Source: Gekko japonicus (taxonomy: Eukaryota). Taken from it: a stretch of DNA of 64,000 nt. The stretch lies in assembly GCF_001447785.1 (NCBI RefSeq), contig NW_015176464.1:248001-312000 (forward strand). Reading direction: 5' to 3'. The translations under genes and the position numbers were made by a program. Under the pieces are notes generated by a model that made no database searches, was not told the DNA's origin, and was given only the letters and a program-made list of their open reading frames with translations. Of the stretch, positions 3,101 through 50,636 are shown in pieces. Within the stretch, counting starts at the first letter, position 1. The number at the start of each line of letters is the position of its first letter.

Positions 3101-4920
3101 AGATATTGTATGGAGGACTATTCAGTCATGTGAATGCTGAGTCTAAAGTGGACCAGCGCAGACACTGATTTGCCATCCAAGTGAGAATCGGGCCTAAGTC
3201 TCGCCTTTTTGTTTATGCACAATATAGACAGTCTCCTCTGTGCAGTCCAATGAGAAATCAGGCAGCTCGCACTTTTTAGCATTCTGACCAAAAAGTTGCG
3301 ACCAAATGCATCGAGATGATAAATATTTGGACCTTAACCAAATCAAAATATTATTAGAGGGTGATTTGATATTACAAACAACCATCTAATTCAGCTTGCA
3401 TTGCTGATCACCCAAAAACCACATATTTATCAAATCATAAACCACGTGTTTATAATTGATTTTCAACACGATGGGTAATATTCTACCATTCTGCTGAGCA
3501 AATGGTGGTACCTCCTTCCAGTGTAAGAAGCCTTCCTCCAGTGCAAGAGACTGAGCCCCTCTTTCCTTGGAGTAAAGCTCCTTGTTGGTGCCACCAAGGG
3601 AAGGTGTCACCAACCCCTTCACCCACCCTGCTTTTCCCGTCACTGATTCCCCTTTTTTACTATCGTTTCACAATTTATCTTTTTCATAGCAAGATACATT
3701 GTTTTCAGTTGGTTGTATCCTACTGTTCTACTCAGTTAACAGTGGCACCTTTGATTAGACTAAGAGTCCAAACATTTATCATCCGGAGATTGCCAGCCTC
3801 CAGGTGAGGCTTGGAGGTCTTCTGGCATTACAATTGATCTCCAGGCTACAGAGGTCAGTTCCCCTAGAGAAAGCAGTCACTTTGGAGGGTGGACCCCCTC
3901 TGTACCCTGGTGAAGTCCCTCTCCTCCCCAGGATCCACCCCCAAATCTCCAGGAATTTCCCAACCTGGAGGTAACAACTCTAGGTCAGTTTTGTGTTTCT
4001 GGGTTTTGTTTCTCAACTAAAATAAAAGTATTTCATCTTACTATCATCAACATAAAGCGTCAGTAAATAAGTACTTTTACATAAGTAGAAATGTTCCTTA
4101 ACAAAGCCAATATGAACTATTGACAACATTTAACAAATAAAATTTGTCTTTAGGGACTACTTGTAGAAGAAGAAGAAGAAAAGATTGGATTTATACCTCG
4201 CCCTTCACTTGGAGTCTCAGAGCGGCTTACAAATGCCTTTCCCTTCCCCTCCCCACAACAGACACTCTGTGAGGTAGGTGGGGCTGAGAGAACTCTGACA
4301 CAAACTGCTCTTTTCCAAGGACAGCTGTGCCAGAGCTTGTGACTGACCCAAGGTCACATCAGCAGGTGCAAGTGGAGGAGTGGGGAATCAAACCCGGTTC
4401 TCCCAGATTAGAGTCCGCACACTTAACCACTACACCAAACTGTAGGTACCTTTGACTAGCTACAGGCCTACATCTAGCCAGTTTCCAAGACTGAATTCAC
4501 ACATCCAACAAGGCTGGGTCTGTATGGCCCCTCCCAACTATGATTCTGTGAGTCTAAGTCCATAAATACCAGCCCTTCTCCTTACTCTCACGTATTCCTC
4601 AATCTGTAGCAGCCCCCTTGGTGTTGTGAAGTCCTTGCACATCAGCCACTTGATGTTTCTCACTTCATGTTTGGCTCCTGCAACTGAAGAAGGCATGGCT
4701 AAGTGCCCAGTGCAGATGGATTTCCCACCCTCTTAAAAATGTCAAAGGTAGTACCTGCCTCTTTAGGTCGTTCTTCTGTTTTCAGTTGTTCTTCTGTAAC
4801 AACTGGCACGGCACTTTCTTCTGTAACAACCTGCGCGGCGCTTTTGATCACATCGTCAACTATTATATATGCGAGCTCCGAGACAGAGTCAAAGGGAATT
4901 TCTGGGTTTTTCCAGGCCAT
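150..4920 (-). CDS. AKAP14: A-kinase anchor protein 14 (AKAP28 family), 5 coding exons, ~193 aa
   Basis: Exons (minus): 4920-4755 (MAWKNPEIPFDSVSELAYIIVDDVIKSAAQVV...), 4683-4586 (VAGAKHEVRNIKWLMCKDFTTPRGLLQIEEYVR), 2416-2237 (TWELHKSWLHWINYL...ATANVYFIIEISKIKPV), 1765-1713 (TLPVEVFFVVETNRFIHR), 234-150 (PGECRFKEKWLKDVIESKVTLMETVNF*). All GT-AG with compatible phases; AATAAA at 107-102; syntenic with NDUFA1. Confidence 0.9.
2611..2803. mobile_element. hAT-type MITE with TAGGGTTGCCA TIRs (abundant family; other copies ~3787-3983, 8982-9191, 10480-10662, 12814-13240, 29128-29337, 42288-42497)
   Basis: TAGGGTTGCCA...TGGCAACCCTA with 8-bp TSD ACAGTTAC (2603-2610, 2804-2811). Confidence 0.8.
4167..4440 (-). 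mobile_element. tRNA-derived SINE (Squam3-like, L2-type tail)
   Basis: Head GTTTGGTGTAGTGGTTAAGTG...GGTTTGATTCCC, (TTC)n tail, TGTAG target-site duplication. Confidence 0.85.
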
Positions 4921-10089: not shown

Positions 10090-12412
10090 TATCAGGGCAG
10101 TCCCATATTGGGGGGGGGGGGGGACGACCCTGAAAGCAACAGTACTGTACCACTAATAAACCACAGGGAGGTATGTTAGTTTGTTGTGGCCAAAACCACC
10201 AAGGTATGGTATTGGTCAAAGTGGATTTTGACTCACAAATGTTTATGTTACAATAAATGTGTTAGTCTTTGAGATGCAACAAGATTTTTTCGCTGTTTTA
10301 GAAGTATTGCGTTCATCAGGACCAGCTATAATACTTCTTTACTAATTTGTAATGATTGAGGCCTGATTTCAAAGAAAGAACTCACCCATGCAACTTTGCA
10401 CTCACGTAACGTCTTTTTTAAACTTGGCTGCTACCCATGCAAAGTAACTAATCACAATGCTAGCATGACTCCCATCTGTCAGAATTACACTGGATCTCCA
10501 CACTACAAAAATGAGCTCCCCTGGAGAAAATGGAAGTGTTAAAGGCTGGAGTCTATGACATCACTTCCCCACACCAAGTCCCTTCCCTTTCCCAGACTCT
10601 GCTCTTCCCAGGCACCACCTCCCAATCTCCAGGATTTTTCCAGTCTGGAGCTGGCAACTCTACTTGTACATCTCTGCGCGAGCCACTGCTCTGGTCTTTC
10701 TTCAGCTAATTAGATGAGTTAATCCTGCAGACACATGTGGGGGGGGGGTAGGCTCCCCGGCAGGTGGGCATTTTTTGTTCTCATTCTAAAAGTATCCCTG
10801 TAAGAGTTAATTCTGCTTCCAATTTTAGTGTTTTTTAAAGTATTTTTCGGAACTGTGAAATTATGACCACATGGTTTTTAATGTGACACTTGTAAAAACA
10901 CCCTAATTTTTTTCCCCATTTCTACAGCTTGTGACAGGAAATCTGGGTTTCAGCTTTAATCAATTTCCAAGCTCAGACCCACTTCCTTTGCAGTGAGGTG
11001 CTAGATTTCCCACAGCAAGCGGGTGGGGTGCTTTGTAGAGAGACTGTTCTCTCACTCCCTGCAAAAGACAAACTCAGACAGGAAGCGTGATGAGTTGGTC
11101 ATGGGCTAGCATGTCCAGTTCTGTCACCCTTTGCAATTTGCTGTTTTAGTCATTCCTATGACATCCCAGAATTGATGAAGGTAGTTCTCAGGTGGCAGGC
11201 ATATTTGTCTGCTTTTTCTTTTCCCTCCAATCCTTATCGGCTAAGATACCAGTGAGAACAATTGTGTATTTGTTCTTCTCAAGCTACAAAGCAAACAAAG
11301 GTGACTTTGAAGTTTGCCAGAGCAGCCAATGACATGGAGACTTTGAAGAGAGGGTTCAGTCTTTTCAGGGTAATGCCCAGGAATTACAGAAATGTACCCA
11401 TGCTTGTGGGCTACTCTCACCTGCAAACTCTTGATCTCTTTGGTTCAGCATCCACATATTAGTACCTCTTTGCCTTGAAAGCAGTTTAAAGTGGGAGCTG
11501 GGAAAAGGAACTTTAAAACATCTTCAAATATATTTTGGAAAGGACTTTGGAGTGATATATTACATCTAATGAAGAGCTGATGCAGCAGAGAGACTAGAAT
11601 TCTGAGTCTGGACCCAAGTCCTGTGTTCAAACGTCACTGCAATCATGAACTTGCCTACCTTTACAGAGTGGCTGCAAACATTATGTGATGTGAAGTTTTC
11701 AGTAACAGCAGCAAAGCATATGAAGCCCTCCCGAAGGAGGTCTGCTTGGCAGGCTTATAGAATTGCTTAAAACTATTCGTTTTTCTTTTTGTCTGTCTCC
11801 AATTTAATTGCTTTTGTCAGTTATTTTGAAGTTTTTAGTTCTGATTGATCTTCAACTTCTAGATGAATGTTGGAACACTCAGGTATTCTCTGGATGCTTT
11901 AGCAAATTTTGCATGCATAAACATTGAAATCATGAGAACTAGAGTTAAAACATGAAAGTAGAGAGTCACTTCCATGTAGGGGAAAGTGTGTAAATTGCAC
12001 ATAATTATTTCACTATATACAGACTCCAGAAAGCAACACCCCCCCATTGGGTACATGCCATGAAGCAGGCGCATTCAACGGTCATGCTGTTTCGGACACA
12101 GAAGAAGTCCTTTTTAGTGGAGGTAGTTTGGTATCCTTTCAAGGGGGCAAAGCACCGTGTAATCTTTAACTGTGCAAATTCCTAAATCCATCTCCTTATT
12201 TTTCCCTGAGAGGAAACCTAGTTCCCAGTAAAAAGAAGGGACATGTGAGCAAGAGGTTGTTTGTATCCAAAATGGGCAGAAAATGAAATTGTTATGGCTC
12301 AATGACTCAGCAGGGCCCTCCCTTTCATTTTAAAGATTTTTTCCTCAAGCCTCAGAGAGTTAATTATTGAGATCAAGGAGAGCAGGCATAACAACTCCTT
12401 TTCTCCTTGGCT

Positions 12413-15400
12413 ATGGCTCACTGGAATCTCTCTCTTCTCTTCGGCTCCACAGTCCTTTGGGCCACGCTGATTCCACGCAGTGCCTTTCCGACAGGGGCTC
12501 CTGCCTCGGCCTGTGAGAATATGTTACCTGTGCACACTGGGGTCCAGCCCCAACAAACTCGGTCTCCCTATGAATTTCTGGTGAGCTCACCGTCTTTCCT
12601 AAATGGGCAACCAATTAACAGTAAGTGCCTCTTTCTAGCTTTTGTTGAAATCTTTTGCTTCAAGCCTATAATATCAGAACGACCAAGTGAGGAGATTACT
12701 TTTATCATCCCTAATTCGTTTGGTTATGCTAGTAATTGAAGATATTTCCTTAATAAGCACTAAGGGCTGGAGAATGTTTCTGACCTGGCTTTTGATGGCT
12801 GGTGGCTACTAGGTAGGGTTGCCAACTCTGGGTTGTGAAATTGCTGGCAATTGGGTGGGTGGGTGGCAATGTTCCCTTTAAGCTGTGGAGTCTTGTGAGC
12901 AAAAATTCTACTTTGTGAGCTACTGGCATTAAAGTTGTGAGTGAGCCATTTGGCTGCTACATAAATCAGTTTGCTTTGGAGCCATCCTTCCTGAGCTAAG
13001 ACAAAAATGTGTGAGCCGGAGGCTAAAAATCTGTGAGCTGGCTCACACTAACTCAGCTTAGAGGGAACTATGGTGGGTGGGTGGGCAGGGTTTGGGGAGG
13101 GAGGGAGCTTACCCGGCTGTAATTTCATAGAGTCCATCTTCAAAGTAGCCATTTTCTCCAGGAGAGCTGATCTCTTTGACCTGGAGACCAGTTGTAATTC
13201 CAGGAGATCTCCAGCTACCACCTGGACAATGGCAACCCTAGATTAGTTTGGAAGCTTTAAGGGAAGATGGCTGAAAGGGAAAATCATCAAAGGCTACAAT
13301 AAATCAAATAAATAAATAAATATTTGCTTTAGGGGAAAGTACTGCTGCTTTATAGACTAGCACTGAACATCTGGGCATGCACACCTCAACATTACAGACC
13401 AGTTATTACGAAACGGTGGCTTGGATCCCACAGAAAATCTTCACTGAGGGAAGGAATTTCCTCACTTTCTTTGGCACACTGTAGCCCATAATACCCCATG
13501 AAATTCTGTTGGCGGACAATGCTCCTAGCCTGGCTGCATATTAGAAGGTCAGATTGACTAGTTTGGTGTAGTGCCAGTTTGGTGTAGTGGTTAAGTGCGC
13601 GGACTCTAATCTGGGAGAACCAGGTTTGATTCCCCATTTCTCCACTTGCACCTGCTGGATGACCTTGGGCAAGCCATAGTTCTGTCAGTGCTGGTCTTGA
13701 AAAGAGCAGTTTCTGCCAGAGCTCTCTCAGCCCCACCTACCTCACAGGGTGTCTGTTGTGGGGAGGGGGAGGGAAAGGCGTTTGTAAGCTGCTCTGAGAT
13801 TCCTTTGGGTAGTGAAGGGCGGGGTATAAATCCAATCTCTTCTCTTCTTCTCTTCTCTTCTAGTTAAAAGCATTTCTAATGCTGTCCATCCTTCAGGGCA
13901 AGTTGCAGCCATTTTAAAAACACAAAATGTAGTAAACAAAGCCTCCAGCCAAGAAAGCAGCTCTTAGTTTCTCTTGTATCAGAAAAGTTAAAACCAACAT
14001 AATTTGGAAAAAGAAAACAACCCAATTTAAGACTGAGGCTGGCCAGACCCTTGGGAAAAGGATGTTTGAAACAGTGAAATGCCAGCAAAGATAGGGTGAA
14101 GTGGACCTCCATTGGGAGGGAATTCCAGAGCTGTGCAGGCACTGTAGAGAAGGCTTGGTCTCCTGCAGCACATATCAGATGGTGGGGCGCATAGAGAAGT
14201 CCCTCTAGGGTTATATAACCTTTTCCCACTCAGATTCACTCAGTTCCCTTCTCCTTACTGCACCTCATAGGCTTTTGTCCATGCAAAGAGCAATACTCTT
14301 CAGAATCGCCTTTTTGTGGTTAAAGTGGAGATCCCTCCCTTTTTCAGCAGCAGAAAAGGTGATTATATCGAGCCCCGATTTCAGTCCCGAAGTCTATAGG
14401 AGGTGAAGTAAGATAGTCTGAATGTGGCACTGGTGACCAAGCTGTCTTGCTGGAAAGTTTTTTCTTCATTAAGAAACCCATGATGTGCTTTGAAGGAACC
14501 CTGGATATGTTTGGGTATTATAGATTAATCCAGAGGACCATAGTTTTCTATGCTTGAAAGAGCACTCAGACATGGTTCACACGTGCAGGAGAATTAGATG
14601 GTAGAAGGACACGAGGTGGTAGAATAACATACTAAAAATGTTGAGCAACTAAAATAGATTTTGCCATGTCAGCCTTGCACTGTTAGATGAAAACTAGCAC
14701 TTAGATGAAAGGCCTCCTCTCTTTGTTGGCTGTGCTAGTTCTCTATTTGCAAGGAGGCTAAAATAGATTTTGCCATGTCGGCCTATGGGGTGGGGGTGGA
14801 TACTAGCTTTGAATATTCCTTGAAAGAAAGAAAACTAGCACTGTTAGATGAAAGGCCTTCTCTCTTTGCTGGCTGTGCTAGTTCTCTATTTGCAAGGAGT
14901 CCTTAAACGTCAGTGAACATTACAAAATGTGATCCTCTATCCTCCGTTTGTTTTATGAAGTGGCATGATCCGTTCTACCACCCTGAGTCTCTGCCACCTC
15001 ATTGCCCGTTCCATGTATGAGCCCAGCCTATGGCAGTTTGATGAGTGTGATCTTTGGCTTGGAGCCAATCAGAATTTCCTGTGGGTGGTAGGGCTTCTGC
15101 CCATGGATCACGACTTTCCTACTTTCCCATCTCCCACTGCAGCCTGAAATACCCCCTTGAAATGCTGGCACACACCCCCGGTCCATGTAGATCTGTGTGA
15201 CAGGATCCATCCCCCTGTTCTCTCTTTAGTTCAGATCCTTGGGCCTGCATACAGAGGACTGTTGTTAGAGGCTCGCTCATTTGGATCCAACACTGCACTG
15301 GGCTTTTGGAAGACTCCACCCAACAACACAAAATTCTTGCAGGTAAGAGACACAAAGTCATTCCTCTTTTCTAGCCCAGAGGTCCTGAAATTCAAGCAGA

Positions 15401-18400
15401 AAGCCTACAGATTGAACTGTACAATTCTAAAATAATGGATTCAGTTTGGTTTTAATTGGTTCTGCCACCCATGTTTTTCTTAAATATTATTCGATCGTCT
15501 GGCTCTTATATGGCACCCCCAATGTCCCCCCTTCACAACTTCTGACTAGGTCCCCATCTTCATAGTTTCAGTAAATTGGCTGTTATCTGATGTTCTCAGA
15601 CTATTCACTGGTTCCAGGGATGGAAATTTCTTACCAGTACTGTCTTCTTTTAGTGGGCTTGAAGCAGAGGAAGATAACGTACACCCTGCTGGGTTCCCTG
15701 ATGCTGTGCAAATGAGCTTGGCCCCCACAGCCATGCTCTAGTGAATTGGCTAATGATGGCAACTTGTTTAGCCCAAAGGGCTGTGCTAAAACTGTTTCAT
15801 AAACCGTACATAATTTTATTAACATAAGTGGAAAACGGAATGCTATTAGATTGCCATGATATTTGGAGGGACCAGCCAGCAGGAGAGACCAAGGGCCCTG
15901 CAACTACTACTTCCACATCTCTGCAGAAACCAGACCTCCTTATAATCATGTTAATATTACAGGAGGGGAGGCTGGGATCCTCAGGGCTGTTTGAAGATAC
16001 AGCCCTAAAGGGCTTGGGTATGCCCAGTGGGATTTCTGATCAACAGCTTCCCAGTTCCTGTTGCATAACATGCTTTTGGAAGCCCTTCTCAGGGACAAAG
16101 CACTTGGCTATGTAGCATGATGGGAGGCTGCTCAACACGCACAAATCCAGAGGCTCCTTGGGCAGACAGAGCTAGCTGTTCTCTGGATACTGACATGGTC
16201 ATTGTGACTAGGAGAATGGGGGGTGGGGACAAGACTGTAGGGAGCCTGATCACCTTGGGGACCTATGGAGCCTGGGAAGTCATGTTTTGTTTGGGTCCAA
16301 GCGGTGGAGGGGGGAAATCTTTGGCTGGGGACCCCCAGGCTGACAGCAGCCCCTGGATGCCAACCAATGATACTATAAACTCAACACTATACTTCAGTGG
16401 TGTGCCAGCCTTTTGAGGAACACTAACCATGAGCTGAGCCTCCTCTAAAGCAATGAGAACTAGAAGATGATATTTCGCTTTAAGAAAGTTGGGAGATCTA
16501 GGGACAAAATATACGTAATGCTGGGGATCTGCGATTAGATTCTCCCCTACATAATTTAGGTGCAAAAAAGCAGCTGTCGGGTGAGGGAGGAATGGGGCCT
16601 GCACAGAATGACAATGTGATGTGCAGAATACCCTTTAGAATGAGAAAAGCTTGCACAGCCACTGTTGTACAGATTATGTAAATAGCTTTCTCCTCCTTTG
16701 CAGTGCTCTGGAAACCCACGTGGAGCAGTGACTCATTCCAACACCAATATAAAAACAAGGCAGACTACTTATACATGGCTCCCACCTAACTCTGGCTGCC
16801 CCCCAGTGGTTATGTTCATGTAAGTTTCACGCATTCTTTTAAAACACTGGCGCCTTTCTTTAAATGTATTTTAGCTCCATCCCTTGTAGAAGCAGAAAGT
16901 TATTTAAATGCACATAAAAGCTGCCAAGAAACTAACACAAGCTTCTTTCTCACTGTTCACTTCACAATAATTTCATTCTTCCAGGATGTAGAGGGTGTGT
17001 TTTTTTAAGTAGAAAGAATGTTCAGAAATTGAATCAAAGCAGTTACAAACGGTCCCATCCCCATACACATAAGAAGTGCCCTGCTGGATCAGACAAGTGG
17101 TCCATCTCGTCCAGCATCCTGTTTGACACAGAGGCCACAAACAGGACATAGAGCCAAAGGCCTTCCCCTGGGGCTGCCTCTTAGCACAAATATTAAGAGG
17201 TCTGCTGCCTCTGAAGGCAAAGGATCCCTTTCATCATCATGGCTAAGATGTTGATGGACCTCTCCTGCACAAATCTGTCTCATCCCCTTTTAAAGTTACT
17301 TATGCTTGTGAGCACCACTATGCAGCGCATTTCACAATTACTTGTTCAGTGAGAAGAGTACTTCCTTTTTTCTATCCTAAATATATTGCCCCATCAATTT
17401 AATTGGGTGTACCAGAGTTCTAGTGTTAACTGAGAGGGCATTCTCTCTGTCCATTCTCTGCACCCCATGCATAATTCTGTAAACCTCTATAATGGCAGAT
17501 TGCAAAGGTCTATTTCTCAATGTATATTATAAACTGTGTCTCCCCCCCTTCTCCACTTTTTTTGAATCAGGGCAACGGTCGCCCAGTCTCATGATTTCTA
17601 CTGGACCAATGTCAAGTCTAAAGTGATCTGGAAAAGTGAGTAACTCTCTAAATTGCTATTTTGAAATAAGACCCTGCTTTCAAGGTCAGTAACTGCTTCC
17701 ACTAAAATAGCACATTCTGCATGGAAAGAATACCTTCTGTTTGGGAGAGCAAGACAGCATTGCATTTGTCATTACAGATCTGATCCCTCTACTCGGAATC
17801 AAAAGGAGGGTTTCCTGTTTATCTAGCAAGTCTTGGCATTTCTGCCACAGTGCATGGTTCCCCATTAGTGCAAAAAGTGGAGTATGCACAAAGTAAATAA
17901 ATTAATGTCACTCCTGAGCAGTGTTCCCTCTAAGCTGAGTTAGTGTGAGCTAGCTCACAGTTTTTTAGCCTCCAGCTCACACATTTCTGTCTTAGCTCAG
18001 GAAGGATGGCTCCAGGGCAAACTAATTTGTGCAGTAGCCAAATTGCTCGCTCACAACGTTAATGCCAGTAGCTGACAAAGTAGAATTTTTGCTCGCAGGA
18101 CTCCATAGCTTAGAGGGAGCATTGCTCCTGAGCTGTTTAGAGAAAGAACAGAATAAAAATGAGATAAATCCAAGAAAATTGTTACAGCTATCATGATCAC
18201 TAATTTGGACCTCCAAGTATATATATTTGACTAGCAGGAGGTTAGGAAGGATATCACCTGCATACATTATCTCTGTCCATCTGGTTGGTCTTGGAAACAG
18301 GGTGTAGTGGACTGAATGACCCTTGGTCTGATTCAGAAAGACAGTTCTTAATGTCCTTGAGTGAAGGTGATGGACAAAATTGAACCTCTGATTTTATATG

Positions 18401-18556
18401 GTTTCAACTTTAGCCCAGACTAGAAAAATCTTAATCTAATTTTCTTTCTATATTACAGATCCCAAAGCTACATGTGGAGCTGAGATGCTGGCCAGAACAT
18501 GGCCTGCTGCAGCACTGTTACCATCTCTGCTGCTGATTTTCCTTGTATACCTTTAG
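12413..18556 (+). CDS. Secreted, probably GPI-anchored single reeler-domain protein (putative defense protein / FRRS1 N-terminus-like), 5 exons, 199 aa
   Basis: Exons 12413-12620, 15230-15342, 16704-16819, 17571-17635, 18459-18556; all GT-AG and phase-compatible. Signal peptide followed by reeler motifs FPTGAPASACENMLPVH, YRGLLLEAR, GFW, CSGNPRGAVTHSN, YTWLPP, FMATVAQSHDFYW; C-terminal hydrophobic tail AAALLPSLLLIFLVYL*. AATAAA at 18822-18827. Confidence 0.88.
12867..13072. mobile_element. ~205-bp hAT MITE (TIR CARTGTTCCCTCTAAG), nested in another MITE
   Basis: 8-bp TSD GTGGGTGG. Confidence 0.85.
13573..13861 (+). mobile_element. Squam3-like SINE
   Basis: Same family; TCT-rich tail; short duplication of the head at 13560-13573. 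Confidence 0.85.
17067..17492 (-). mobile_element. CR1 LINE 3' fragment
   Basis: ACATAAGAAG...CTGCTGGATCAGAC...GGTCCATC..GTCCAGCATC is the reverse complement of the CR1 3' end seen at ~28900-28970. Confidence 0.7.
17919..18124. mobile_element. ~205-bp hAT MITE
   Basis: TIRs; 8-bp TSD CTCCTGAG. Confidence 0.88.
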
Positions 18557-19478
18557 AGACCCTTACAAGAAGGGCTACTTATTAGTTGTGAATGAATCAA
18601 AACAGAGTTATCATTTTTGTTTAAATATAGGGGGAAATCCTCTTTTCAGCTCTTCCCTAAGACATGAATGATGTTCCAGCAGGCAACTTTATATAGAGTT
18701 TCTGTTTCTTATAATATAGGGCAACTTTTCTAGCCCCTAGAATGGGAGATGTGAAAACAGGACATTTTGTATTTAGTGAAAATATGATTCCATTGGTAAC
18801 ACTATAGATTTTCAGTGTCCCAATAAATCCTATCACAGATTTTCCACATTATCTGGTTTGCTGTAGAACTTTTCAGATTTATTGTAGCCATGGTTTGAAA
18901 CTACTGAATAAATGTCACTTAGTCAAGCTTACCCAGATCTGAAAAATTTATCTCAAGTTAATGGAACCATTAATGGTCAGGACTATAGTTAAGTCTGCCC
19001 TTACAGGAAAGAATATTTGAGCATACAGTGAAATAGATATGAAATGTTAACACACCTGATGCAGGTGTTAGCATAATCTTGCATGAAGAAGAATCCTTCA
19101 GAAATTATTGCCAGTACTTTGAATCAGGATTTGGAAGAGGAAATGGGGATGCCCAAGCACAAGACTATCAGTCTCCTCCTTAACCAGACGGATAGAAGCA
19201 TGGCCTCCCCCTATATAGCTTAGGACCAAGGTATTTGAAGAACTACCTGCTCTTTTATATATAGCCTGGACACTGATTTCATATTTACAGGCCATGGTTT
19301 TGTATGTGTGTGTGTCTTCTCTCTCCCCCACCCCGCACTGAGGTAAGGTGTGCAGTCAGAAAGACAAGGCCTTCTCAGCTTTGGCACCCAAGCTTTGGAA
19401 TGCCCATCCTGTCAATCATTGTTTGCTGCCTGCTATAGCATTTCAGGAATGTAGCCACATCAATCTGTTGTAGTAGAA

Positions 19479-20390: not shown

Positions 20391-20517
20391 TTATTTCTTG
20401 GAAGTTAGACATTTATGTCCCCCATTCTCAAGTCTATACTCAGTATGAGGTACACTTTGTCAAATACATATTTATTGATATTAGGCTGGTTCTGGTAGAA
20501 TTCATCATGCCATGGGT

Positions 20518-23500
20518 TTAGTCAATGTTCTCCAAGCCCTGAAAAATACAAAGTTAGACAAAGTTAAAGGCTTCTGCCAGATATAACATTGATGCTATCC
20601 ACCAGTTAACAAATCCCTTTCTAAGGAACTTCTCTGCTTATTTTTGCTAACAACAGAAAGGCAGTGAGATCCTATGCAGGCAATCTTTCTGCCTAGTTCC
20701 CCTCCCCCTGTGCAGTCTTCTGTTTCTCCCACATGCCCCCTAGGTTGTTTAGCAGACCCCCAGGGACAGCATGAGGGTTTAAGTATGAGGCTGCCATGAG
20801 AGGGGAGGAATCAGTGAAAATCACCTCCCTTTCTGAGTGGAAGTATCTGCTCCCCGCACTTCTTGGGTGCAGCATCAGGCAGGCAAGCTCTTTTGTAACA
20901 TCAGGAGTTGAGCCATAACAGCTATTCTGGTTGGCATTGGCTCCGCTGCTGTGATGTCACAGAGAGTCCTGCTAGCTTCAGCCTGGGCAGACTGTTCTTT
21001 GACAGGCATCTCATGCCAAAGCAACGAAATCTGGCACAAGAGGGGTGAGAATCACTGTAATGGATCTTGTTGTGGAGTCACTTTACATACAAGGTTCCAT
21101 AATGTGAAGATCAAATCATCAGCACCTAGGAAAAAAAATTGGTTGCTGAATTCTCTATTTTAGTACCTTAGAAACTCATCCATCTTATGGGAAATTTTCA
21201 GAGGGATATGGTTCTGTCCCAGTGATAATTTTAAAAAAAAAATCATCTACAAGAAAGTCCATGACTATGATGCAATCCACAATGGTTGACTAGGCTCAGA
21301 ATGCCTCTTGGAGGAATGGATAAAGCACAGGATATGAATTATGAGGGCCCATGAGTAACATTTACCAAATTAAATAACATAAGCATCATGTGGATGCTCT
21401 GGACACTAAACAACACTTTGTGGACAAGGACAAGCCATTTGCAGAAAATAGACAAGACATCCCTTAAGTCCATAGAGTCCAGAGTCTATACTGATACTAG
21501 TCAAGAAAATCAGCCTTATTTCTTGTGCCCTGAACCCACCAGCTGCTCCCTGTGGCCTCCAAGACCCCCCTATGGTCATTTGCTTAGATAACAGTGGCTG
21601 TTTTTTGTGTATGCGCCCAGTATCATGAGGTAATATGGCAGTCAGTAGCCAGCAGCCATTGGAAGTGACAAAGAAAGGCTGGGAGAGGAATAATGGTGAA
21701 CAGTTAGGAGCCAGTGATGTGCTGTGGCCGGTGTGTTAGAAAAGGAAGACCTGGGTTCAAATCCCTACTCAGCCACAAAGCACACTGGTGACTTCAGTCC
21801 CCCGTGTCTCAGCCTAATCTAACTCAAAGGTTATAAGGATAAAGCAGAGAAGGAGAGAATCAGGTACACTGCTCTGAGCTCATCAGAAGAAAGAGGAGAA
21901 GAAAAAGTAATAATTAGATGAGGCGGCTGTTGGGCTAATAAGGAACCAAGGTCTGTTAGCTGTGTCCTCAGGCATCATACAGCAACACTGCACAAAAGAA
22001 AGGAAAGCAGGAAAAATGAGCAAGAAGTGGACTTCATGAACTCAAGAAAGCATTCTTCCCCCCCACCCACAAAAGTCTAATCTGTGAATGAGCCAGTCTC
22101 ACACCATAAATAATGTCAGCATCCAGAATTTCTACAACATTTCTTCATCCAGCACTCAGCACCGTTATTTTATCAATGACTTGTTTTCTGCCTGAAGGCC
22201 ACATCCTACTCTGGTTTCTCCATGAGATGGATGGCTGTGAACACAGGGGTGGAAACTAGTCAGAGGGTCAAAAATACTGATTTTATTGACCAAAAAGAAC
22301 CGGCCAGCAGCCTGCCATCCCTGGTGGAGGGCGTGTCAGGCTGGGTGTTGGAACACCCTAGACCGATTGTCCTGCGTGATTTCAATGTCCATGAGGACGA
22401 TGTGGCCCCCACTCAGGTGATGGACCTAGTGTCATCCATGGTGGCACTGGGACTCTCCCAATATGTAACAACTCCCACTCGCCGAGCCGGACACACGCTT
22501 GATCTGATCTTCGCAGCAGGGGTCATGGTGGATTGAGTTGGACCATCTGAATGTTTCACCCCGATCCTGTTTGGGTGGCAAGCAGATTTCAGCTTGCCCA
22601 CAGAGCCAAATGGACCCTATGTGGCTTCAAATGGCCCTGTGGGATCCAATGCCCCCCTGGTGGCTCATTAGATGAGCTTGTGGAGGATTGGCATAGCTGA
22701 CTCTCAGCAGCCATTAATGAGATCACTTCTCGACGCCCTTGACGCCTTCACTCTAGACTGGCTCCTTGGTTTACCCGGGAGTTGCGGCTGATGAAGCGAA
22801 GGCTAAGATGGCTAGAGAGACAGTAGCGGTGCGCCTGCAATGAAGCCACAAGAACATCTTATAGGACGTTTATGAGATCCTATGAGGTGGCAGTCAAAGC
22901 CGCTGAGAGTATTATGCAGCCACGATTGCGTCTGAAAGTTCATGCCCAGCCTAATAATCGGTCTATGACTGTTCTGCCACAAGGCAGACCAAATGTTAGG
23001 GAATTGGACACTGGCTGTGAGGCCTTTGCAAGCTACTTTGCAGATAAAGTCCTCTCACTCCGCCGTAACCTCCCCACCACAGTTGATACAGTAAGTGAAC
23101 TTGAGGCTCCATGAAGGTCTTCTAGTCAGGTTATGGATTATTTCAGTTTGCTCAGCCTGGAGGAAGTTGACAAACTGCTCTCAACTGTACACCCTACCAT
23201 GTGCTGCCTTGACCCATGCTCATCATGGCTAATTAAAGCTGGCCGTGATGGGTTTCGAGATGTCCTAAGAGAGATTATTAATAAATCCCTCTCAGAGGGA
23301 CAGTTCCCTAGGGCACTCAAGGAAGCTGTGGTTCATCCCCTCCTGAAAAAGCCATCTCTGGATCTGGCCGAATTGGCTAATTACCGGCCGGTCTTCAATC
23401 TGCCCTATTTGGGCAAAATAATTGAGAGGGCCATGGCACTTCAGCTACAGAGCTTTTTAGATGACACTTCTATATCCTTTCCAGTCCGGTTTCCGCCCAA

Positions 23501-26500
23501 GCCACGGGACGGAGACGGCACTGGTTGCCTTCATGGATGACCTCCGGAGGCATCTGGATCGGGGTGGATTGACAGTGATGTTGCTGTTGGATCTGGTTGG
23601 TGGCGTTTGACACGGTCGACCATCAGTTACTGATCCACCGCCTCGCCGACACTGGAGTCCAGGGGTCTGCCTTGCAATGGCCGGCTTTCTTCCTTCAGGG
23701 TCGGGGACAAAGGGTGGCGCTAGGGGAGCAGCTATCCCAAAGGCACCCACTAATATCTGGAGCGCCCCAAGGGGCGGTGCTGTCCCCAATGTTATTTGAC
23801 ATCTACATGTGCCTCCTTGCCCAGATTGCCCGGAGGCATGTGCTGGGATGTCACCAGTATGCGGATGACAACCAGCTCTATCTGTTGTTGGGGGGGCCAG
23901 TCTGACTTTACACTGGAAGATCTGGACCAGGCGCTGAAAGCTGTGGCTGGCTGGCTCAGACTGAGCCAACTGAAACTGAATCCGACAAAGACAGAGGTCC
24001 TATGCCTGAGCCAGGGTGGCCCAAGGGTAGGGATCCTACTTCCGATCTTCAATGGGGTGCCATTGGTGCCAAGCGCCGGAGGTTAGGAGCTTGGGAGTGC
24101 TCCTGGATGCCTTACTAACAATGGAGGGCAAGGTAGCAGCCACTGCCAAATCAGCCTTTTACCACCTACGGCAGATTAGGCAGTTGGTTCCCTTCCTCGA
24201 ATGCAACGACTTGGCAACAATGATCCATGCAATCGTCACCTCAAGATTGGACTACTGTAATGCTCTCTACATGGGGCTGCCCTTGACCCAAATCCAGAAG
24301 CTACAGCTAGTGCAAAATGCTGCAGCCAGGCTTCTGATGGGCCTCCCTATGCGGGAGCACATCCAGCCTGTGCTGAAAGCACTGCACTGGCTGCTGATAG
24401 CATACCGAATTCGCTTCAAGGTGCTGGTACTTACCTTTAAAACCCTTTATGGTCAGGGTCCCACATACCTGAGGGAATGCCTTTCCCCACACGTTCCCCA
24501 GAGAGCACTGCGCTCAGGGTCACAAAGGTCCTAAAGATGCCAGGCTGGCCACAACCAGGGCCAAGGCCTTCTCAGTGGTGGCTCTGTACTGGTGGAATGT
24601 ACACCCTACCATGTACACCCAGAAGAGATCAGGGCCCTCAGGACCTTTTAAAGTTCCACAGGGCCTGCAAGATGGAGCTCTTCCACCAGGCCTTCGACTA
24701 AGGAGCCGCACCAAATAACATCAAATAACTGAGAAGAGACAGTGCCCTGGTCCTTGGCTTACCACCGCCTGTGCTGTTGCCTAAATATAGAGACCAAGAC
24801 GAGCCAACCACCAATATAGATCATCTGACTACAACACTAGTATTGGTTCTGCCTTCTGTAAGCATTGTTATAAGTACCTGATCAGTTACTAGCACTTTAT
24901 GATAATGTAGAGTTTTATTATTTGTTTTAAGATTGTATATAATTTGTTACCTATATGTTTAATCTCTTTGTAAGCCGCCCTGAGCCTGCTCCGGCAGGGA
25001 GGACAGGGTATAAATAAAGTTATTCACGAACTCTTTTGTTTCTCAACAGTTTTCTGCATTGCATCCACAAGCATTTTTCCCCTTGTCCTCTTCTTCCATT
25101 GCTTTCTCAACTCCTTCTAGCATGAGCTGTGCCATGCTGAATCCCACAATATCCATTGCCTCTACTTTCATTGTCTCATGTTTTAAGAGGTTAATTATGT
25201 TTCTATACTTTGTGGAAGATTTCACCAAATCACTTTTACTCTTAGAAACAAAGTCCTTAAAGTACTTCATAACTAAACTGAAAACAATCTGTCTTCTCAC
25301 TGGGAAGTCATCATGTTTGCCCAAAAATTCAGTAATGAAAATGGAAAAACACAAACTGCATTCACAAAAATCAAAGAAATACTGACTTTACTGACCAATT
25401 TTTTAAAAAAACTGACAAATTACTGACCAAGATGAAAAAACTGACTTTTACTGATTTTACTGACCATTTTCCACCCCGTGAACAGATGTTAAGGGGTAGA
25501 ACCCAGCCTAGAAGTCATTCGGGGACCAAGGTAGAGGTGAACTGCTGATGATGAATTTATATCTTTCAGTACTAGTTTTGCCCCGACCACTTTGTCCCAA
25601 GACGTCTGTTCAAAACTCACCTTTGATTCATAGTAGCGATTGGTTTGGGAAACACGCCTGTCCCTTTCCATTAGGTACCACTGATAGGGACTCCGAGCAA
25701 CTCTCTTCTCCTAGGCACACAGAAATGCATCAGAGAGTATAGAGGGAAGAATAAAGAGAAATGATATCATGTAACTGGGGGGAAATTAGATACAAAGTAA
25801 AGCTCACATCAGAAAGAGGAATTAAGTACAAGTGATGCTGGCTAAGGTGCAAAGCTTTTTCTGCAACGATGACATCACAGTCTAACATGTGACCAATGTT
25901 CCCTCTAAGCTCTGAAGTCTTGTGAGCAAAAATTCTGCTTTGTGAGCTGCTGGCATTAAAGTTGTGAGTGAGCGATCTGGCTACTGCATAAATCAGTTTG
26001 CCCTGGAGTCCTCCTTCCTGAGCCGAGGCAAAACTGTGTGAGCCAGAGGCTAAAAAACTGTGAGCTGGCTCACACCAACTCAGCTTAGAGGGAACACTGC
26101 ATGTGACACAATCAAATTCATAGGTAAGGATACAGTTCAGCAGAGAAGACGATTAAAAATGTTTCTGTACCATTTCAGATTGCTAGTGTGGGTTTTTATC
26201 ACTGAATGTTTTCCAATTTTAACATACAGAAAACTAGCCATGTTGTGTAATGGGCAGGGGTCATTTCCTGCGGGAGCGCACAGGAGTGGAGCAACAAGCA
26301 CATGCAACAAGCCCCACCCCCTGCTCCCAGCAGCCCTCAGTTGGTCCACGAAGAGCAAGAGGCAGCCAGGTAAGTTGCAGAGCCCCCCCTCCGGCCCGCC
26401 TTCAGGTACAAGCTCTCTCTCCTCTGTGAGGGCAGATCTGTGCGTTCCCCCCCCCCCAAAGCTAGCAATCCAAAACAGTCCAGTGGAACCTTTAAGACCA

Positions 26501-29500
26501 AGTTTTATTCAGGTACAAGCTCTCCCCTCCTCTGTGAGGACAGATCTGCACTGCAATAGATAGCCGTCCAGTGGAGCCTGAGTGGTGGATGTTGCCTTCT
26601 GACACAGTTCCGGTGATGTCAGGAGGTGTGGCATATGCAAATAGGTTATGCTAATGTGCTCCTGTACCTCTTTTTCTACAAAATGCCCCCTGGTAATGGG
26701 TAAACCACTATACTTGGTCTGTGGGTCCTGGTTCAAATGTCCAGTTAGCTCTGAAACAGCTTTTACTGTTGTGATTTCAGATATTATGTTTTTATCATAC
26801 ATTTCTATTAAGGAGCTGGAGGTAGTGTGTACAGGCCTCTTTGTCCCTAAGTTATCAGTCCTCTGACTGGCCAACAACATCCACTAATCTAGGGCAGTTA
26901 AGCAGAGATCTAAACTCAGATCTAAGCAGTCTTATTTATTCCATTCTTATTGCACCCTTCCTCCAAGGAGCTCATGGTGGTATACATGGGTTGCCTCTCC
27001 CCTGGTTATTAGTGTCACAACAATCCTGTGAGGTAGTTTAGGCTTAGAAATGAAGTAATTAGCCTGTTGCCTTGCTACCCAGTAAATTTCATAAAGGATC
27101 TGTACCCAGCCCTATTTGGTCACTTTAACCAGTCCTCAATGCAGGCTGCTCTGTCAGTCACTTCATACATGGCACAGAAAGGCTACAAAACGAGACACTA
27201 CCTTGAGATAAAAAGAAATTCTTAAAGTGAGATAGGATGGTGCCGGTGGGTGGTTCAAGTGTCAAAATGCTGGGAGATTAGGGTTGCTAGGTCCCCTCTG
27301 GCCACAAGCAAGGGATGGGGGGGGGGGGGGTTGCAGATCCAGGTTGGGAAACTCCTGGAGATTTGGGGATGGAGCCTAAGGAGGATAGGGACCTCAGTGG
27401 GGTACAATGCCCTAGAGTCTACCCTCCAAAGCACCCATCTTCTCCAGGGGACCTGAGTCAGATTGAGGTGACGAAAAAGGAGGTCCTAAAACTGATAGAT
27501 AACTTAAAAACTGATCACCAGGCCCAGATGGCATACATCCGAGAGTTCTGAAAGAACTCAATTGTGAACTTGTGGATCTCCTGACAAAAATATGTAATCT
27601 TTCCTTAAAATCAGCCTCCATTCCTGAGGACTGGAAGGTAGCTAATGTCACTCCCATCTTTAAAAAGGGTTCCAGAGGAGATCCGGGAAATTACAGGCCA
27701 GTCAGTCTGACGTCGATACCGGGTAAATTGGTGGAAACCATTATTAAGGAAAGAATTAGTAGGCACATAGATGAACAAAACCTATTGAGGCAGACTCAGC
27801 ATGGGTTCTGTAAGGGAAGATCTTGTCTCACTAACCTGTTAATGTTCTTTGAGGGGGTGAACAAACATGTGGACAAGGGGGATCCAATAGATATTGTTTA
27901 CCTTGACTTCCAGAAAGCTTTTGATAAAGTTCCTCATCAAAGGCTCCTAAGTAAGCTNNNNNNNNNNNNNNNNNNNNNNNNNNNNNNNNNNNNNNNNNNN
28001 NNNNNNNNNNNNNNNNNNNNNNNNNNNNNNNNNNNNNNNNNNNNNNNNNNNNNNNNNNNNNNNNNNNNNNNNNNNNNNNNNNNNNNNNNNNNNNNNNNNN
28101 NNNNNNNNNNNNNNNNNNNNNNNNNNNNNNNNNNNNNNNNNNNNNNNNNNNNNNNNNNNNNNNNNNNNNNNNNNNNNNNNNNNNNNNNNNNNNNNNNNNN
28201 NNNNNNNNNNNNNNNNNNNNNNNNNNNNNNNNNNNNNNNNNNNNNNNNNNNNNNNNNNNNNNNNNNNNNNNNNNNNNNNNNNNNNNNNNNNNNNNNNNNN
28301 NNNNNNNNNNNNNNNNNNNNNNNNNNNNNNNNNNNNNNNNNNNNNNNNNNNNNNNNNNNNNNNNNNNNNNNNNNNNNNNNNNNNNNNNNNNNNNNNNNNN
28401 NNNNNNNNNNNNNNNNNNNNNNNNNNNNNNNNNNNNNNNNNNNNNNNNNNNNNNNNNNNNNNNNNNNNNNNNNNNNNNNNNNNNNNNNNNNNNNNNNNNN
28501 NNNNNNNNNNNNNNNNNNNNNNNNNNNNNNNNNNNNNNNNNNNNNNNNNNNNNNNNNNNNNNNNNNNNNNNNNNNNNNNNNNNNNNNNNNNNNNNNNNNN
28601 NNNNNNNNNNNNNNNNNNNNNNNNNNNNNNNNNNNNNNNNNNNNNNNNNNNNNNNNNNNNNNNNNNNNNNNNNNNNNNNNNNNNNNNNNNNNNNNNNNNN
28701 NNNNNNNNNNNNNNNNNNNNNNNNNNNNNNNNNNNNNNNNNNNNNNNNNNNNNNNNNNNNNNNNNNNNGGTATAGATAGGGGCTCTGGGGCAAGTGATGC
28801 TCTGTCTTCTTGGTGCTTGGGGGGGGGGGTTCAACAGTGGGATGGCTTCTAATGTCCTGGCCCCACTGGTGGACCTCCTGATGGCACTGGTATTTCTGGC
28901 CACTCTGTGATACAGAGTGTTGGACTGGATGGGCCTTTGGCCTGATCCAACATTGGCATCTCTTATGTTCTTAACCAATCTCTGTAGTCTGGAGATGAGC
29001 TATAATACCGGGGGACTCCGAGGTCGAACCTGGAGGCTAGCCTCCCTATGGGAGATCCAGGTCAAATCCCCACTTCATCACGAATCTCATTGGGTGATCT
29101 AGGGTCAGTCACTCTCCCTCTCAAACCTAGGGTTGCCAGCTGTGGGTTGGGAAATTCCTGGGGGTTTGGGGGTGGTAGCCTGGGTTTGGGGAGGGGAGGG
29201 ACCTCAGCAGAGTATTATGCCACAGAATTTGCCCTTCGGAGCAAGCGTTTCCTCCAGGGGAACTGATCTCTGTAGTCTGGAGAACGACTGTAATTCCAGG
29301 AGAACTCCAGGTCCCACCTGGAGGTTGGTAACTCTACGCCCTCAGAGGGTTGTTAAGGGGACATTAAAGTGGGGGAAAGAAGAACACTGAGCGCTGCCCT
29401 GAGCTTACTGGAGAAAGGATGGGATAAAGTGTACTCCAGAGAAAGAGCAAGACCCAGCTAGAGAGTAAAACGGAAACCCTCTCGTCGCCAGACCTCTTCA

Positions 29501-29629
29501 CGGCCGAATAGCTAGACATACTCTCACCTTTCCCCCGTTCGTGTATCTATGGATCCAGACGGTGCTGAGTCCAGGGATATTCAAACACACATACATGACC
29601 CCCAAGCAAGGGAGGATCTCGTACCACAT
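20518..29629 (-). CDS. NDUFA1: NADH:ubiquinone oxidoreductase subunit A1 (MWFE), 3 exons, 70 aa
   Basis: Exons (minus) 29629-29528 [34 protein letters not shown], 25710-25621 [30 protein letters not shown], 20538-20518 GLENID*; GT-AG; AATAAA at 20476-20471. Confidence 0.96.
22244..25480. mobile_element. hAT-like DNA transposon remnant hosting the L2 insertion
   Basis: TIR CAGGGGTGGAAA...GTCAG (22244) / CTGACCATTTTCCACCCC (~25460-25477); GTGAACA on both flanks; subterminal ACTGAC repeats 25381-25466; AT-rich ORF remnant 25043-25354. Confidence 0.6.
22301..25018 (+). mobile_element. 5'-truncated L2-clade LINE (frameshifted endonuclease/RT ORF2) in NDUFA1 intron 2
   Basis: GHTLDLIF (APE end), [16 protein letters not shown] (RT), [23 protein letters not shown]; 3' tail GTAAGCCGCCCTGAG...GGGTATAAATAAA; many stops and frameshifts. 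Confidence 0.92.
25894..26099. mobile_element. ~205-bp hAT MITE
   Basis: TIRs; 8-bp TSD CATGTGAC. Confidence 0.88.
26255..26692. mobile_element. hAT non-autonomous element (TIR CAGGGGYCATTT)
   Basis: 8-bp TSD GTAATGGG; a second, partial copy in opposite orientation at 49540-49693. Confidence 0.8.
27453..28972 (+). mobile_element. 5'-truncated CR1 LINE (RT) spanning an N gap, inserted in a TAGGGTTGCCA-type MITE
   Basis: [28 protein letters not shown]...QHGF...[13 protein letters not shown]; 3' end CTTATGTTCTTA; host MITE resumes at ~28975. Confidence 0.9.
27958..28768. other. Assembly gap (N run); further gaps at 49694-49866 and 50327-50339
   Basis: Runs of N. Confidence 1.
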
Positions 29630-30097
29630 CCCGACTGCGCTCTCCGGCAATACCACCACCTTCACTCAGTCTCTCTCTCTGTCCTAAAGACACACAGAGT
29701 AATCACCACGCATGCGTGAAAGCATGTAACCGACTCTCCGACCTTTCCCAGAATGCATCGCGCACCACGGTAGTAGTCAGCGGCTGTTGCTAAGGTGACA
29801 AGGACAGCCGAATAAACAAGCTGGTTAGATGTGTGTATGGCTGGCATGCCGGGAACGAGGAGGTCTGTGAAGGTTGCGGAGCATGCTGGGAGTGGCCGTC
29901 CCGCCCGGGGTATGTCGGGAATAGGAATCTCTATGACAACCATGAGGCCTGGAATAGTGGTGCGTCCCTATGCCCGTGGAGGAGGTGTCGCTTTGGGGGC
30001 GGCCCTTTTTTCGGTACTCCCGCGAGAGGAGGGATGGCGAATGCGCGCACCAGTCAGAGCTGAGGCGGACGGAGGAGGAAGGCCGGCTGCATCTGCG
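29630..30097. promoter_or_regulatory. Bidirectional CpG-island promoter shared by NDUFA1 and UPF3B
   Basis: 468 bp between divergent ATGs; CpG-rich; NRF1-like palindrome CACGCATGCGTG 29707-29718 and TGCGCGCA ~30042; ZNF143/SBS-like TTCCCAGAATGCA 29745-29757 with reverse-oriented copies at 29843 and 29881. Confidence 0.75.

Positions 30098-43466: not shown

Positions 43467-50636
<7,170 letters not shown>

Follow-up and report, generated by a model that had tools for sequence, protein, structure and literature searches.

Which protein is encoded between AKAP14 and NDUFA1 in Gekko japonicus, and what might its solitary Reeler domain do? The window, that is, the whole 64,000-nucleotide stretch of DNA analysed in this work, carries at positions 12413 to 18556 of the forward strand a five-exon gene of 600 nt, specifying 199 amino acids followed by TAG. 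Its four introns all have GT...AG borders and pyrimidine tracts, with phases 1/0/2/1. Exon 1 (12413-12620, amino acids 1-69) opens with an ATG in good context and encodes the signal peptide (amino acids 1-24, 12413-12484), the predicted mature N-terminus F25-P26, the triplet GAP, and the residues C34 (12512), M37 (12521), and H41 (12533). Exon 2 (15230-15342, amino acids 70-107) contributes Reeler core strands and the sequon NNT at 101, exon 3 (16704-16819, amino acids 108-146) supplies C108, the invariant T-H118 (16734), and C139 (16797), and exon 4 (17571-17635, amino acids 146-168) holds the final Reeler strands. The coding part of exon 5 (18459-18556, amino acids 168-199) encodes a stalk with C173 (18473), a spacer, a hydrophobic tail, and the TAG; two AATAAA hexamers at 18822 and 18907 (span 18822-18912) on the same strand are candidate polyadenylation signals. 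A profile of 97 homologues, run against 2672 six-frame stretches of the window, matched exons 1 to 4 with E values of 7e-22, 1e-17, 6e-18, and 5e-8, respectively, and no other stretch fell below E 1.4. Exons, introns, phases, and profile matches agree with the intact gene proposed in the initial annotation, and a pseudogene or chance ORF was rejected.

The flanking genes had also been named correctly. AKAP14 lies upstream, head to head, on the reverse strand (2168-4920, with the ATG near 4920 and more exons below 2168), and an AKAP28 domain at 2168-2434 (-) supports its identity. NDUFA1 lies downstream, tail to tail, on the reverse strand (20471-29629, polyA near 20471), with an MWFE match at 29501-29665 (-); its exon 1 spans 29629-29528, and exons 2 and 3 lie near 25710-25621 and near 20538, with borders placed by eye and uncertain by about 1 nt. 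UPF3, RPL39, and an ankyrin ORF come next.

Residues 37-199 are identical, letter for letter, to XP_015282553.1, the G. japonicus RefSeq protein "ferric-chelate reductase 1-like". This RefSeq model is truncated and misnamed; database forms of 163-164 amino acids that begin at M37 without the leader occur in the gecko and in turtles. The RefSeq name originates from FRRS1/SDR2 and Drosophila CG8399, which are Reeler-DOMON-cytochrome b561 proteins and have an N-terminal extracellular Reeler in common with the gecko protein, but the latter has neither the DOMON nor the cytochrome b561 domain. A fragment of FRRS1 was rejected, since Reeler is the sole Pfam match, the ORF ends at 18556, and NDUFA1 is the next gene. 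The label "uncharacterised" holds insofar as our literature search found no functional study, fish namesakes appearing only as rows of expression tables, but the gene has already been modelled and automatically named "putative defense protein 3/Hdd11" in many genomes.

The single Reeler domain was recovered with the Pfam model PF02014 at 87.1 bits (gathering cut-off, 21), using a protein identical to that of the window. The predicted fold, taken from a model of the Heteronotia homologue (177 of 199 residues identical to the gecko protein, pLDDT 87), is an F-spondin-type beta-sandwich. The other features that had been read from the sequence are all present in the 199-aa translation, namely, the signal peptide, four cysteines (34, 108, 139, and 173), the sequon NNT, the stretch TCGA, and a hydrophobic C-terminus without a cytoplasmic tail; a second sequon, NLS at 5, lies inside the leader. 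The hydrophobic leader, with small residues at -1 and -3, is conserved among homologues: of 95 sequences, 89 have a small residue at its end, all 95 have Y/F/L next, and 88 have P after that. Four positions are invariant or nearly so: H41 (134/134), H118 (136/136), C34 (124/124), and M37 (132/134). The final 19 residues are uncharged, with nothing after them. For the GPI-type C-terminus we used a rule of our own rather than a trained predictor (small omega and omega+2 residues, spacer, hydrophobic end, no cytosolic tail); the gecko protein conforms to it, with the best site at C173-G-A, 26 residues from the end, and so do 86 of the 97 homologues. TCGA (residues 172-175) had been noted as a small-residue stretch, and it does provide the candidate omega site, but its C173 is also a candidate disulfide partner of C139 and probably bonded to it. 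After nine short sequences were dropped from 136, both cysteines were present in 53 of the 127 full-tail sequences, neither in 69, and one alone in 5; ray-finned fish and the snake Ahaetulla have each lost the pair on separate occasions. A homodimer prediction scored 0.00 and weighs neither way. That the gene is real and its product surface-anchored is very probable, gene and anchor both being well supported, the latter by the predicted C-terminal signal.

Homologues range from sharks to platypus, and lamprey and hemichordate proteins have the same architecture. No named bird or therian protein appears among the best 120 of 147 matches, nor among all 47 matches of a platypus-plus-alligator profile. 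A plasmid tblastn gave eight records, all at chance level. The proposal of a gene retained in reptiles and lost from mammals agrees with the lack of a therian match, but the gene is jawed-vertebrate-wide, is kept in platypus, and is apparently missing from birds; a reptile-specific gene was thus rejected. Judging from these matches, the gene was apparently lost in birds and in therians, which would parallel their loss of skin xanthophores. Birds, however, retain pigment cells in the iris, which counts against the parallel, and given the platypus copy and the lamprey and hemichordate architecture, the ancestral role would therefore have been broader than xanthophores. The proteins called si:dkey-251i10.2 or, in RefSeq, "putative defense protein 3/Hdd11" in fish, amphibians, reptiles, and platypus are alike in signal peptide, single Reeler, and hydrophobic tail, but those of ray-finned fish lack C139/C173. 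Seven fish proteins named Si:dkey-251i10.2 in UniRef share 47-55% identity with the gecko protein and score 132-172 bits, versus 102-142 bits for other stand-alone paralogues. In the tree, the split from the "b" paralogues was supported at 92/76, and tetrapods joining the "b" paralogues were not rejected by the AU test (p 0.11). Zebrafish si:dkey-251i10.2 (NP_001313480, ENSDARG00000093957), whose own sequence is absent from the matches listed, is the probable orthologue; presumably, zebrafish ndufa1 was formerly named si:dkey-251i10.1.

In zebrafish, si:dkey-251i10.2 was detected in 100% of the cells of cluster 15, which are xanthophores, versus 4.6% elsewhere (logFC 3.48; PMC7886338), and it is a listed xanthophore marker with a specificity of 0.69 and 89% of cells (PMC6588384), both data sets being sorted for the sox10 lineage so that specificity applies within the sorted cells. 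The gene is a marker of an epithelial cluster at 48-50 hpf (48% versus 1.4%). The FPKM of goldfish "putative defense protein 3" is 0 in white, 23.0 in yellow, and 9.5 in brown skin (PMC9854719). Egg-spots of a cichlid show reduced hdd11 (logFC -2.19; PMC5012078), which counts against the xanthophore reading. No trace of the gene came up in a supplement from work on anole skin colour or in those of two further Danio papers on pigment or skin, and a literature search returned no study linking xanthophore with reeler. By analogy with fish, we consider it fairly likely that the gene is xanthophore-enriched in reptiles. The upstream sequence had been taken to carry an AP-1 site, and TGACTCA does stand at 12303-12309 (+), 104 nt ahead of the start codon. 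The motif occurs at chance level, however, the window holding 9 copies against 11.2 expected from shuffles, and was rejected as evidence. SOX and PAX-like promoter words have counts near expectation, a single imperfect M-box-like word, ACATGTGA, lies at 12241, and no NF-kB-like or MRE word occurs within 1.5 kb upstream; nothing was rested on any of these.

What the domain might do is suggested by its structural relatives. The top match is the F-spondin Reeler (2ZOT, 2ZOU, and 3COO; Foldseek E 8e-8, Z 12.4); F-spondin and Reelin are, however, large matrix proteins with 16-19% identity and a Glu at H118. The best match after F-spondin is cytochrome f (2JXM, 4OGQ, and 1E2V), with Z scores of 9.3, 9.2, and 8.5 that lie within 1 of a pilin (8.7) and PECAM-1 (8.4), a tie that counts against the link; the superposition has an rmsd of 3.0 over 127-130 aligned residues at about 11% identity. 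The sandwich of the cytochrome f large domain, including the N-terminal arm, is common to both. Because the alignments begin at model 27/chain 3 or 29/5 in the three structures, F25 falls on cytochrome f residue 1, as read from the range ends only. Mature cytochrome f starts with Tyr1-Pro2, and Tyr1 ligates the haem; an aromatic-Pro start after leader cleavage is predicted for the gecko protein too. Cytochrome f differs in its covalent c-haem, bound via CxxCH, its inserted small domain, and its transmembrane helix, and CxxCH is absent from the gecko protein.

This motif is found in bacterial choice-of-anchor V proteins (NF041895), surface-type proteins that are homologous to the Reeler across the whole domain, with leader, G-A-P, and Cys order in common. 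Every one of the 74 bacterial TGAPG-x3-CxxCH proteins tested falls under NF041895, and 40 of them also match Pfam Reeler, but as the set was picked for CxxCH, the commonness of the motif is not readable from it. They have His at the H41 column and, in 65 of 74, at the H118 column, and lack an equivalent of C108. In the profile alignment (P 84.8, E 6.6e-6), the Cys that opens CxxCH is matched by C34 and the His that closes it by H41, and the alignment is still significant without the N-terminal arm (P 77.7; 10 column shuffles, <=0.66). The two best structural matches of a bacterial model are cytochrome f, with Z scores of 10.8 and 10.7 and 139 residues aligned from chain residue 1, and one of the 74 proteins touches Apocytochr_F_N (E 0.011). 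The gecko counterpart of CxxCH is C-E-N-M-L-P-V-H, in which the second Cys is gone and three residues are inserted before H41. The vertebrate HMM recovers just 2 of 121 bacterial sequences at E<1e-3; with NF041895, whose cut-off of 42 bits was not reached, P0012 gave no match, 27 of 97 homologues did (best E 7.4e-6), and five fish proteins rescanned at 15.6-19.3 bits. PDB sequence searches gave nothing significant, whether with the protein, whose best match was a polysaccharide monooxygenase at E 0.42 that we attribute to chance, or with the homologue profile (F-spondin, E 0.09), and cytochrome f was undetected by sequence from the vertebrate or the bacterial profile. An Atlas search leaving out Reeler clusters gave no usable match, and one with the hemichordate homologue gave Reeler clusters only, bacterial ones included, with no cytochrome f row. 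In the literature searched, no earlier link of reeler to cytochrome f or CxxCH was found, nor one to NDUFA1 or to a GPI anchor in zebrafish.

Our best reading, put forward tentatively, is a protein GPI-anchored on the surface of xanthophores, whose haem or metal site derives from cytochrome f. The protein would be secreted, lose its leader ahead of F25, carry a glycan at N101, and be closed by two disulfides, C34-C108 and C139-C173, and an anchor at or beside C173 would keep it lying against the outer leaflet, nothing of it reaching the cytoplasm, chiefly on xanthophores and more weakly on epithelia. The free alpha-amine of F25 and H41, aided by M37 or H118, may stand where cytochrome f has its haem-holding Tyr1 and CxxCH His, and non-covalent binding of haem or a transition metal is proposed for this reason. 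We hypothesize that the protein partners the pigment cell in extracellular redox chemistry or scavenging, much as if the Reeler ectodomain of an FRRS1-type reductase stood on its own. A site in actual use is possible rather than probable, and the C34-C108 bond could close the pocket, which counts against it. Metal or haem handling, already suggested at the outset, gains independent support from the cytochrome f match and the bacterial CxxCH, while binding itself stays hypothetical.

It is rather unlikely, in our judgement, that the protein instead serves pigment-cell recognition or adhesion with no cofactor, as a basic beta-sandwich whose ligands are glycosaminoglycans, matrix, or a partner on a neighbouring chromatophore and whose histidines are structural relics. 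The xanthophore data fit such a role equally, the mature domain is basic (12 K/R versus 4 D/E, pI about 9.8), and F-spondin, the closest solved fold, has a Reeler that binds heparin. Passages in two sources suit an adhesive role, one terming Reeler an adhesion module (PMC10691727) and the other citing weak homophilic Reeler dimers (PMC8011033). Adhesion nevertheless leaves the fixed aromatic-Pro N-terminus and the invariant M37/H41/H118 unexplained, and F-spondin lacks H118. A protein mostly secreted or held in the lumen of a pigment organelle, its tail a plain membrane anchor or often spliced away, would account for the 9 of 136 database models that are short of the tail, for the leaderless forms, and for the 11 of 97 homologues that fail the GPI rule. 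We regard it as very improbable, as no residue follows the uncharged run in 67 of 97 homologues and a few do in most others, and forms complete with leader and tail, 190-230 aa in full length, occur in all groups.

The epithelial innate defence first suggested is not the leading reading, because the fish relatives show xanthophores first, weaker epithelial expression, and repression rather than induction; that the protein recognizes microbial patterns or acts against bacteria at the surface of skin and other epithelia appears distinctly unlikely. Its models would be arthropod Hdd11, Noduler, BmReeler1, PIXR, and LvReeler1-3, in which a single Reeler likewise comes straight after the signal peptide. 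In shrimp, infection induces the LvReelers, which inhibit Vibrio (PMC12113285), and tick PIXR limits biofilms (PMC5543126); the basic charge and the expression at 48-50 hpf also suit defence, which haem or metal sequestration could itself serve. However, the "defense protein" names are automatic, the pigment cell gives the strongest expression signal, and the AP-1 and NF-kB-like words lend no help. Salmon fin hdd11 drops about 25-fold with lice (PMC7177938), and the zebrafish protein drops during CuSO4 inflammation (PMC7271515). Arthropod Reelers are described as secreted and infection-induced, those of shrimp as tail-less proteins of 143-159 aa, whereas the gecko protein has a GPI-type tail and its relatives, fish namesakes only, mark xanthophores and fall under lice and copper.

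The Reeler function in FRRS1-type proteins is stated as not known in a passage of PMC10691727, and the cytochrome f link is testable family-wide, human FRRS1 and insect defence proteins included. On a broader view, which we consider rather unlikely, the Reeler domain would descend from a cytochrome-f-like c-type haem domain, with CxxCH kept in bacterial choice-of-anchor V proteins and the amine/His site kept in eukaryotic stand-alone and FRRS1-type Reelers, which would bind haem or metal non-covalently; the gecko gene would encode a GPI-anchored xanthophore haemo- or metalloprotein, lost twice, in birds and therians, with skin xanthophores, and fish, amphibians, and reptiles would gain a new candidate gene for colour. 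Retention of that site would explain why a Reeler almost always starts directly after the signal peptide, and if the N-terminal amine matters, N-terminally tagged recombinants may miss activity. Separately, an unstudied surface protein that xanthophores express strongly and that birds and therians seem to have lost is a candidate for colour or patterning and might offer a way of sorting these cells by their surface.

The five-exon Reeler gene at 12413..18556 (+) was borne out at the positions proposed in the initial annotation, with canonical splice sites, compatible phases and a product of 199 aa. Pfam also confirms the proposed AKAP14/NDUFA1 flanks, the order being AKAP14 (-), the Reeler gene (+), NDUFA1 (-), UPF3B, RPL39 and an ankyrin gene; to our knowledge, the human interval contains no such gene. 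The Gekko japonicus protein XP_015282553.1 ("ferric-chelate reductase 1-like", 163 aa) is identical to residues 37-199, begins at M37 and therefore lacks the leader and C34, the missing part (signal peptide, C34) corresponding to window positions 12413-12520. Since other geckos have full-length relatives, among them a Heteronotia protein identical to the subject protein at 177 of 199 residues, the upstream ATG is confirmed. The same start at M37, with signal peptide and C34 missing, is seen in the model for Gekko kuhli and in several isoforms from turtles. As to the AP-1 site that had been proposed, the word is present, but it occurs 9 times in the window against 11.2 expected.

The gene has a wide taxonomic range. 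An alignment search gave 147 matches, and the 120 listed include squamates, tuatara, turtles, alligator, frogs, lungfish and platypus, as well as sharks, chimaera, bichir, gar, paddlefish and many teleosts. No bird or therian name was present among these 120, nor among all 47 matches of a platypus+alligator profile, of which 3 are unnamed; because both searches were word-seeded and incomplete (the profile found fewer fish, and Xenopus and zebrafish are unlisted), absence of the gene from birds and therians is likely, short of proof. The proposal of retention in reptiles and loss from the mammalian X needs correction, since the platypus keeps the gene. Birds and mammals have no skin xanthophores, which the likely absence in birds and therians parallels, with platypus as the exception. 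In an exhaustive search of 50% representatives (3841 matches, 150 listed), the 20 named entries were from fish, salamanders, lamprey, hemichordates and a snail and included further paralogues of cartilaginous fish, paddlefish, anchovy and newt; the hydrophobic C-terminal tail is also found in the lamprey and hemichordate proteins. The gecko protein groups with reptiles in a 48-row tree, from which the "b" paralogues, a second group of stand-alone Reeler proteins, split off with hemichordates (support 92/76). Given this split, the fact that forcing tetrapods together with the "b" group was not rejected (p 0.11), and the overlapping bit scores against the gecko protein (132-172 for seven fish proteins named Si:dkey-251i10.2, 102-142 for nine paralogues), orthology to zebrafish si:dkey-251i10.2 is probable, short of proof. 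Cartilaginous fish have several stand-alone paralogues (Callorhinchus P0088, P0294 and P0150; Pristiophorus P0163 and P0166), and two of the Callorhinchus paralogues are listed on contigs of equal length (17,883,382), which suggests that they are linked.

Across 136 sequences, isoforms included, no variation is seen at C34, H41, C108 and H118, and hardly any at M37. The last residue of the leader is small in 89 of 95 homologues, and the predicted mature chain of the 95 starts with Y/F/L, mostly followed by P, always three residues ahead of GAP. The predicted mature chain of a Lissotriton paralogue (P0285/P0157) begins with His (H-P-D-G-A-P), reminiscent of the N-terminal histidine braces that bind copper. 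C139 and a stalk Cys occur together in 53 sequences, are both missing from 69 and occur singly in 5 (9 short rows dropped), counts largely made up by one inherited event; their co-occurrence and their joint loss, seen in ray-finned fish and also in a single snake, point to a second disulfide between them. Thy-1 offers a precedent for an omega Cys that takes part in a disulfide.

A link to bacterial proteins emerged from the choice-of-anchor V family (NF041895), whose model is matched by 27 of 97 homologues. When prokaryotic genomes were scanned for TGAPG-x3-CxxCH, 6 of the 64 parts yielded 123 stretches (an estimated ~1300 overall). Of 127 pattern matches, 74 distinct ones with a full open frame were retained; the others lay at the edge of a locus (44), contained stops or X (4) or were duplicates (5). 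NF041895 is matched by all 74 and Pfam Reeler by 40, and their profile finds F-spondin (E 7e-5). When the profiles are aligned, C34 falls on the first Cys and H41 on the His of CxxCH, and H118 aligns to a bacterial His found in 65/74; a core-only alignment is still significant against shuffles. The Heteronotia protein model (pLDDT 87) has F-spondin Reeler as best structural match, followed by cytochrome f chains (Z 9.3, 9.2 and 8.5; rmsd 3.0; 127-130 aligned). These Z scores tie with those of pilin and PECAM-1, but the latter align at most 104 residues from near residue 51, whereas the cytochrome f alignment includes the arm at the N-terminus, its offset staying at 24 throughout, which sets F25 on residue 1 of cytochrome f. 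The haem ligands of cytochrome f are the residue-1 amine and the CxxCH histidine. A bacterial protein model (pLDDT 94) has cytochrome f as its top match, from chain residue 1. The fold matches and the bacterial CxxCH homologues support the view that Reeler and the large domain of cytochrome f share an ancestor, haem binding by the vertebrate protein staying hypothetical. The bacterial proteins (GTDB; many from Bacteroidota and Acidobacteriota), with leader, CxxCH and cytochrome-f-like fold, are candidate unrecognised surface c-type cytochromes; at two pairs of loci (L005/L006 and L061/L062), two such genes lie ~0.9 kb apart.

In the accessible parts of the expression studies, every cell of a 68-70 hpf xanthophore cluster expresses si:dkey-251i10.2, compared with 4.6% of the remaining cells, and the gene is detected in 48% of one 48-50 hpf cluster whose markers we read as epithelial and otic (PMC7886338); it is also one of 30 listed xanthophore markers, with the second highest mean expression (PMC6588384). 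Of the relatives matched by name only, that of goldfish is absent in white skin and highest in yellow (PMC9854719). Against or neutral to a xanthophore link are a cichlid namesake lower in egg-spots (PMC5012078) and a salmon namesake ~25-fold down in lice-infested fin (PMC7177938), both likewise matched by name, as well as the zebrafish larval protein, detected and down after CuSO4 (PMC7271515). Neither the gene nor a relative was found in the accessible supplements of PMC8416024, PMC10495112 and PMC8290120.

Our preferred, still tentative, reading is that of a GPI-anchored protein on the xanthophore surface, whose free N-terminus and His41 would bind haem or a metal in an extracellular redox or scavenging role. 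Behind it we place cofactor-free adhesion or recognition, which is rather doubtful; accessible text describes N-terminal Reeler domains and weak dimers (PMC8011033) and states that what the Reeler domain does in proteins of the FRRS1 type is not known (PMC10691727). Defence of the arthropod type, for which portions of PMC12113285 and PMC5543126 are cited, ranks behind the haem/metal reading as well and appears unlikely. So does a form without GPI anchor, which we regard as improbable; the GPI-type tail proposed initially passed a rule-based test in the window protein and in 86 of 97 homologues. Being already modelled, auto-named in many genomes (for example "putative defense protein 3") and a member of a known family, the gene is not the undescribed system for which it had been put forward as a candidate. 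No functional paper was found in the open-access literature. Nor did this literature, which leaves out subscription titles and with them the papers on the F-spondin structure, yield any on anchor, synteny, loss pattern or a cytochrome f link.

Elsewhere in the window, NDUFA1 and UPF3B are arranged head to head, with starts ~470 nt apart in a CpG island (29629-30098); no RNF113A-like ORF was noticed between them, unlike the human order. Assembly gaps (27958-28768, 49694-49866 and 50327-50339; 997 N in total) all lie outside the Reeler gene. The last intron of NDUFA1 carries a broken LINE-type element (about 22200-24800, +) with an RVT_1 match at 23579-23902. Introns 1 and 4 of the Reeler gene hold two oppositely oriented copies of a 203-nt small repeat (12866-13068 and 17923-18125; 91% complementary), with a further similar copy near 25890-26095.
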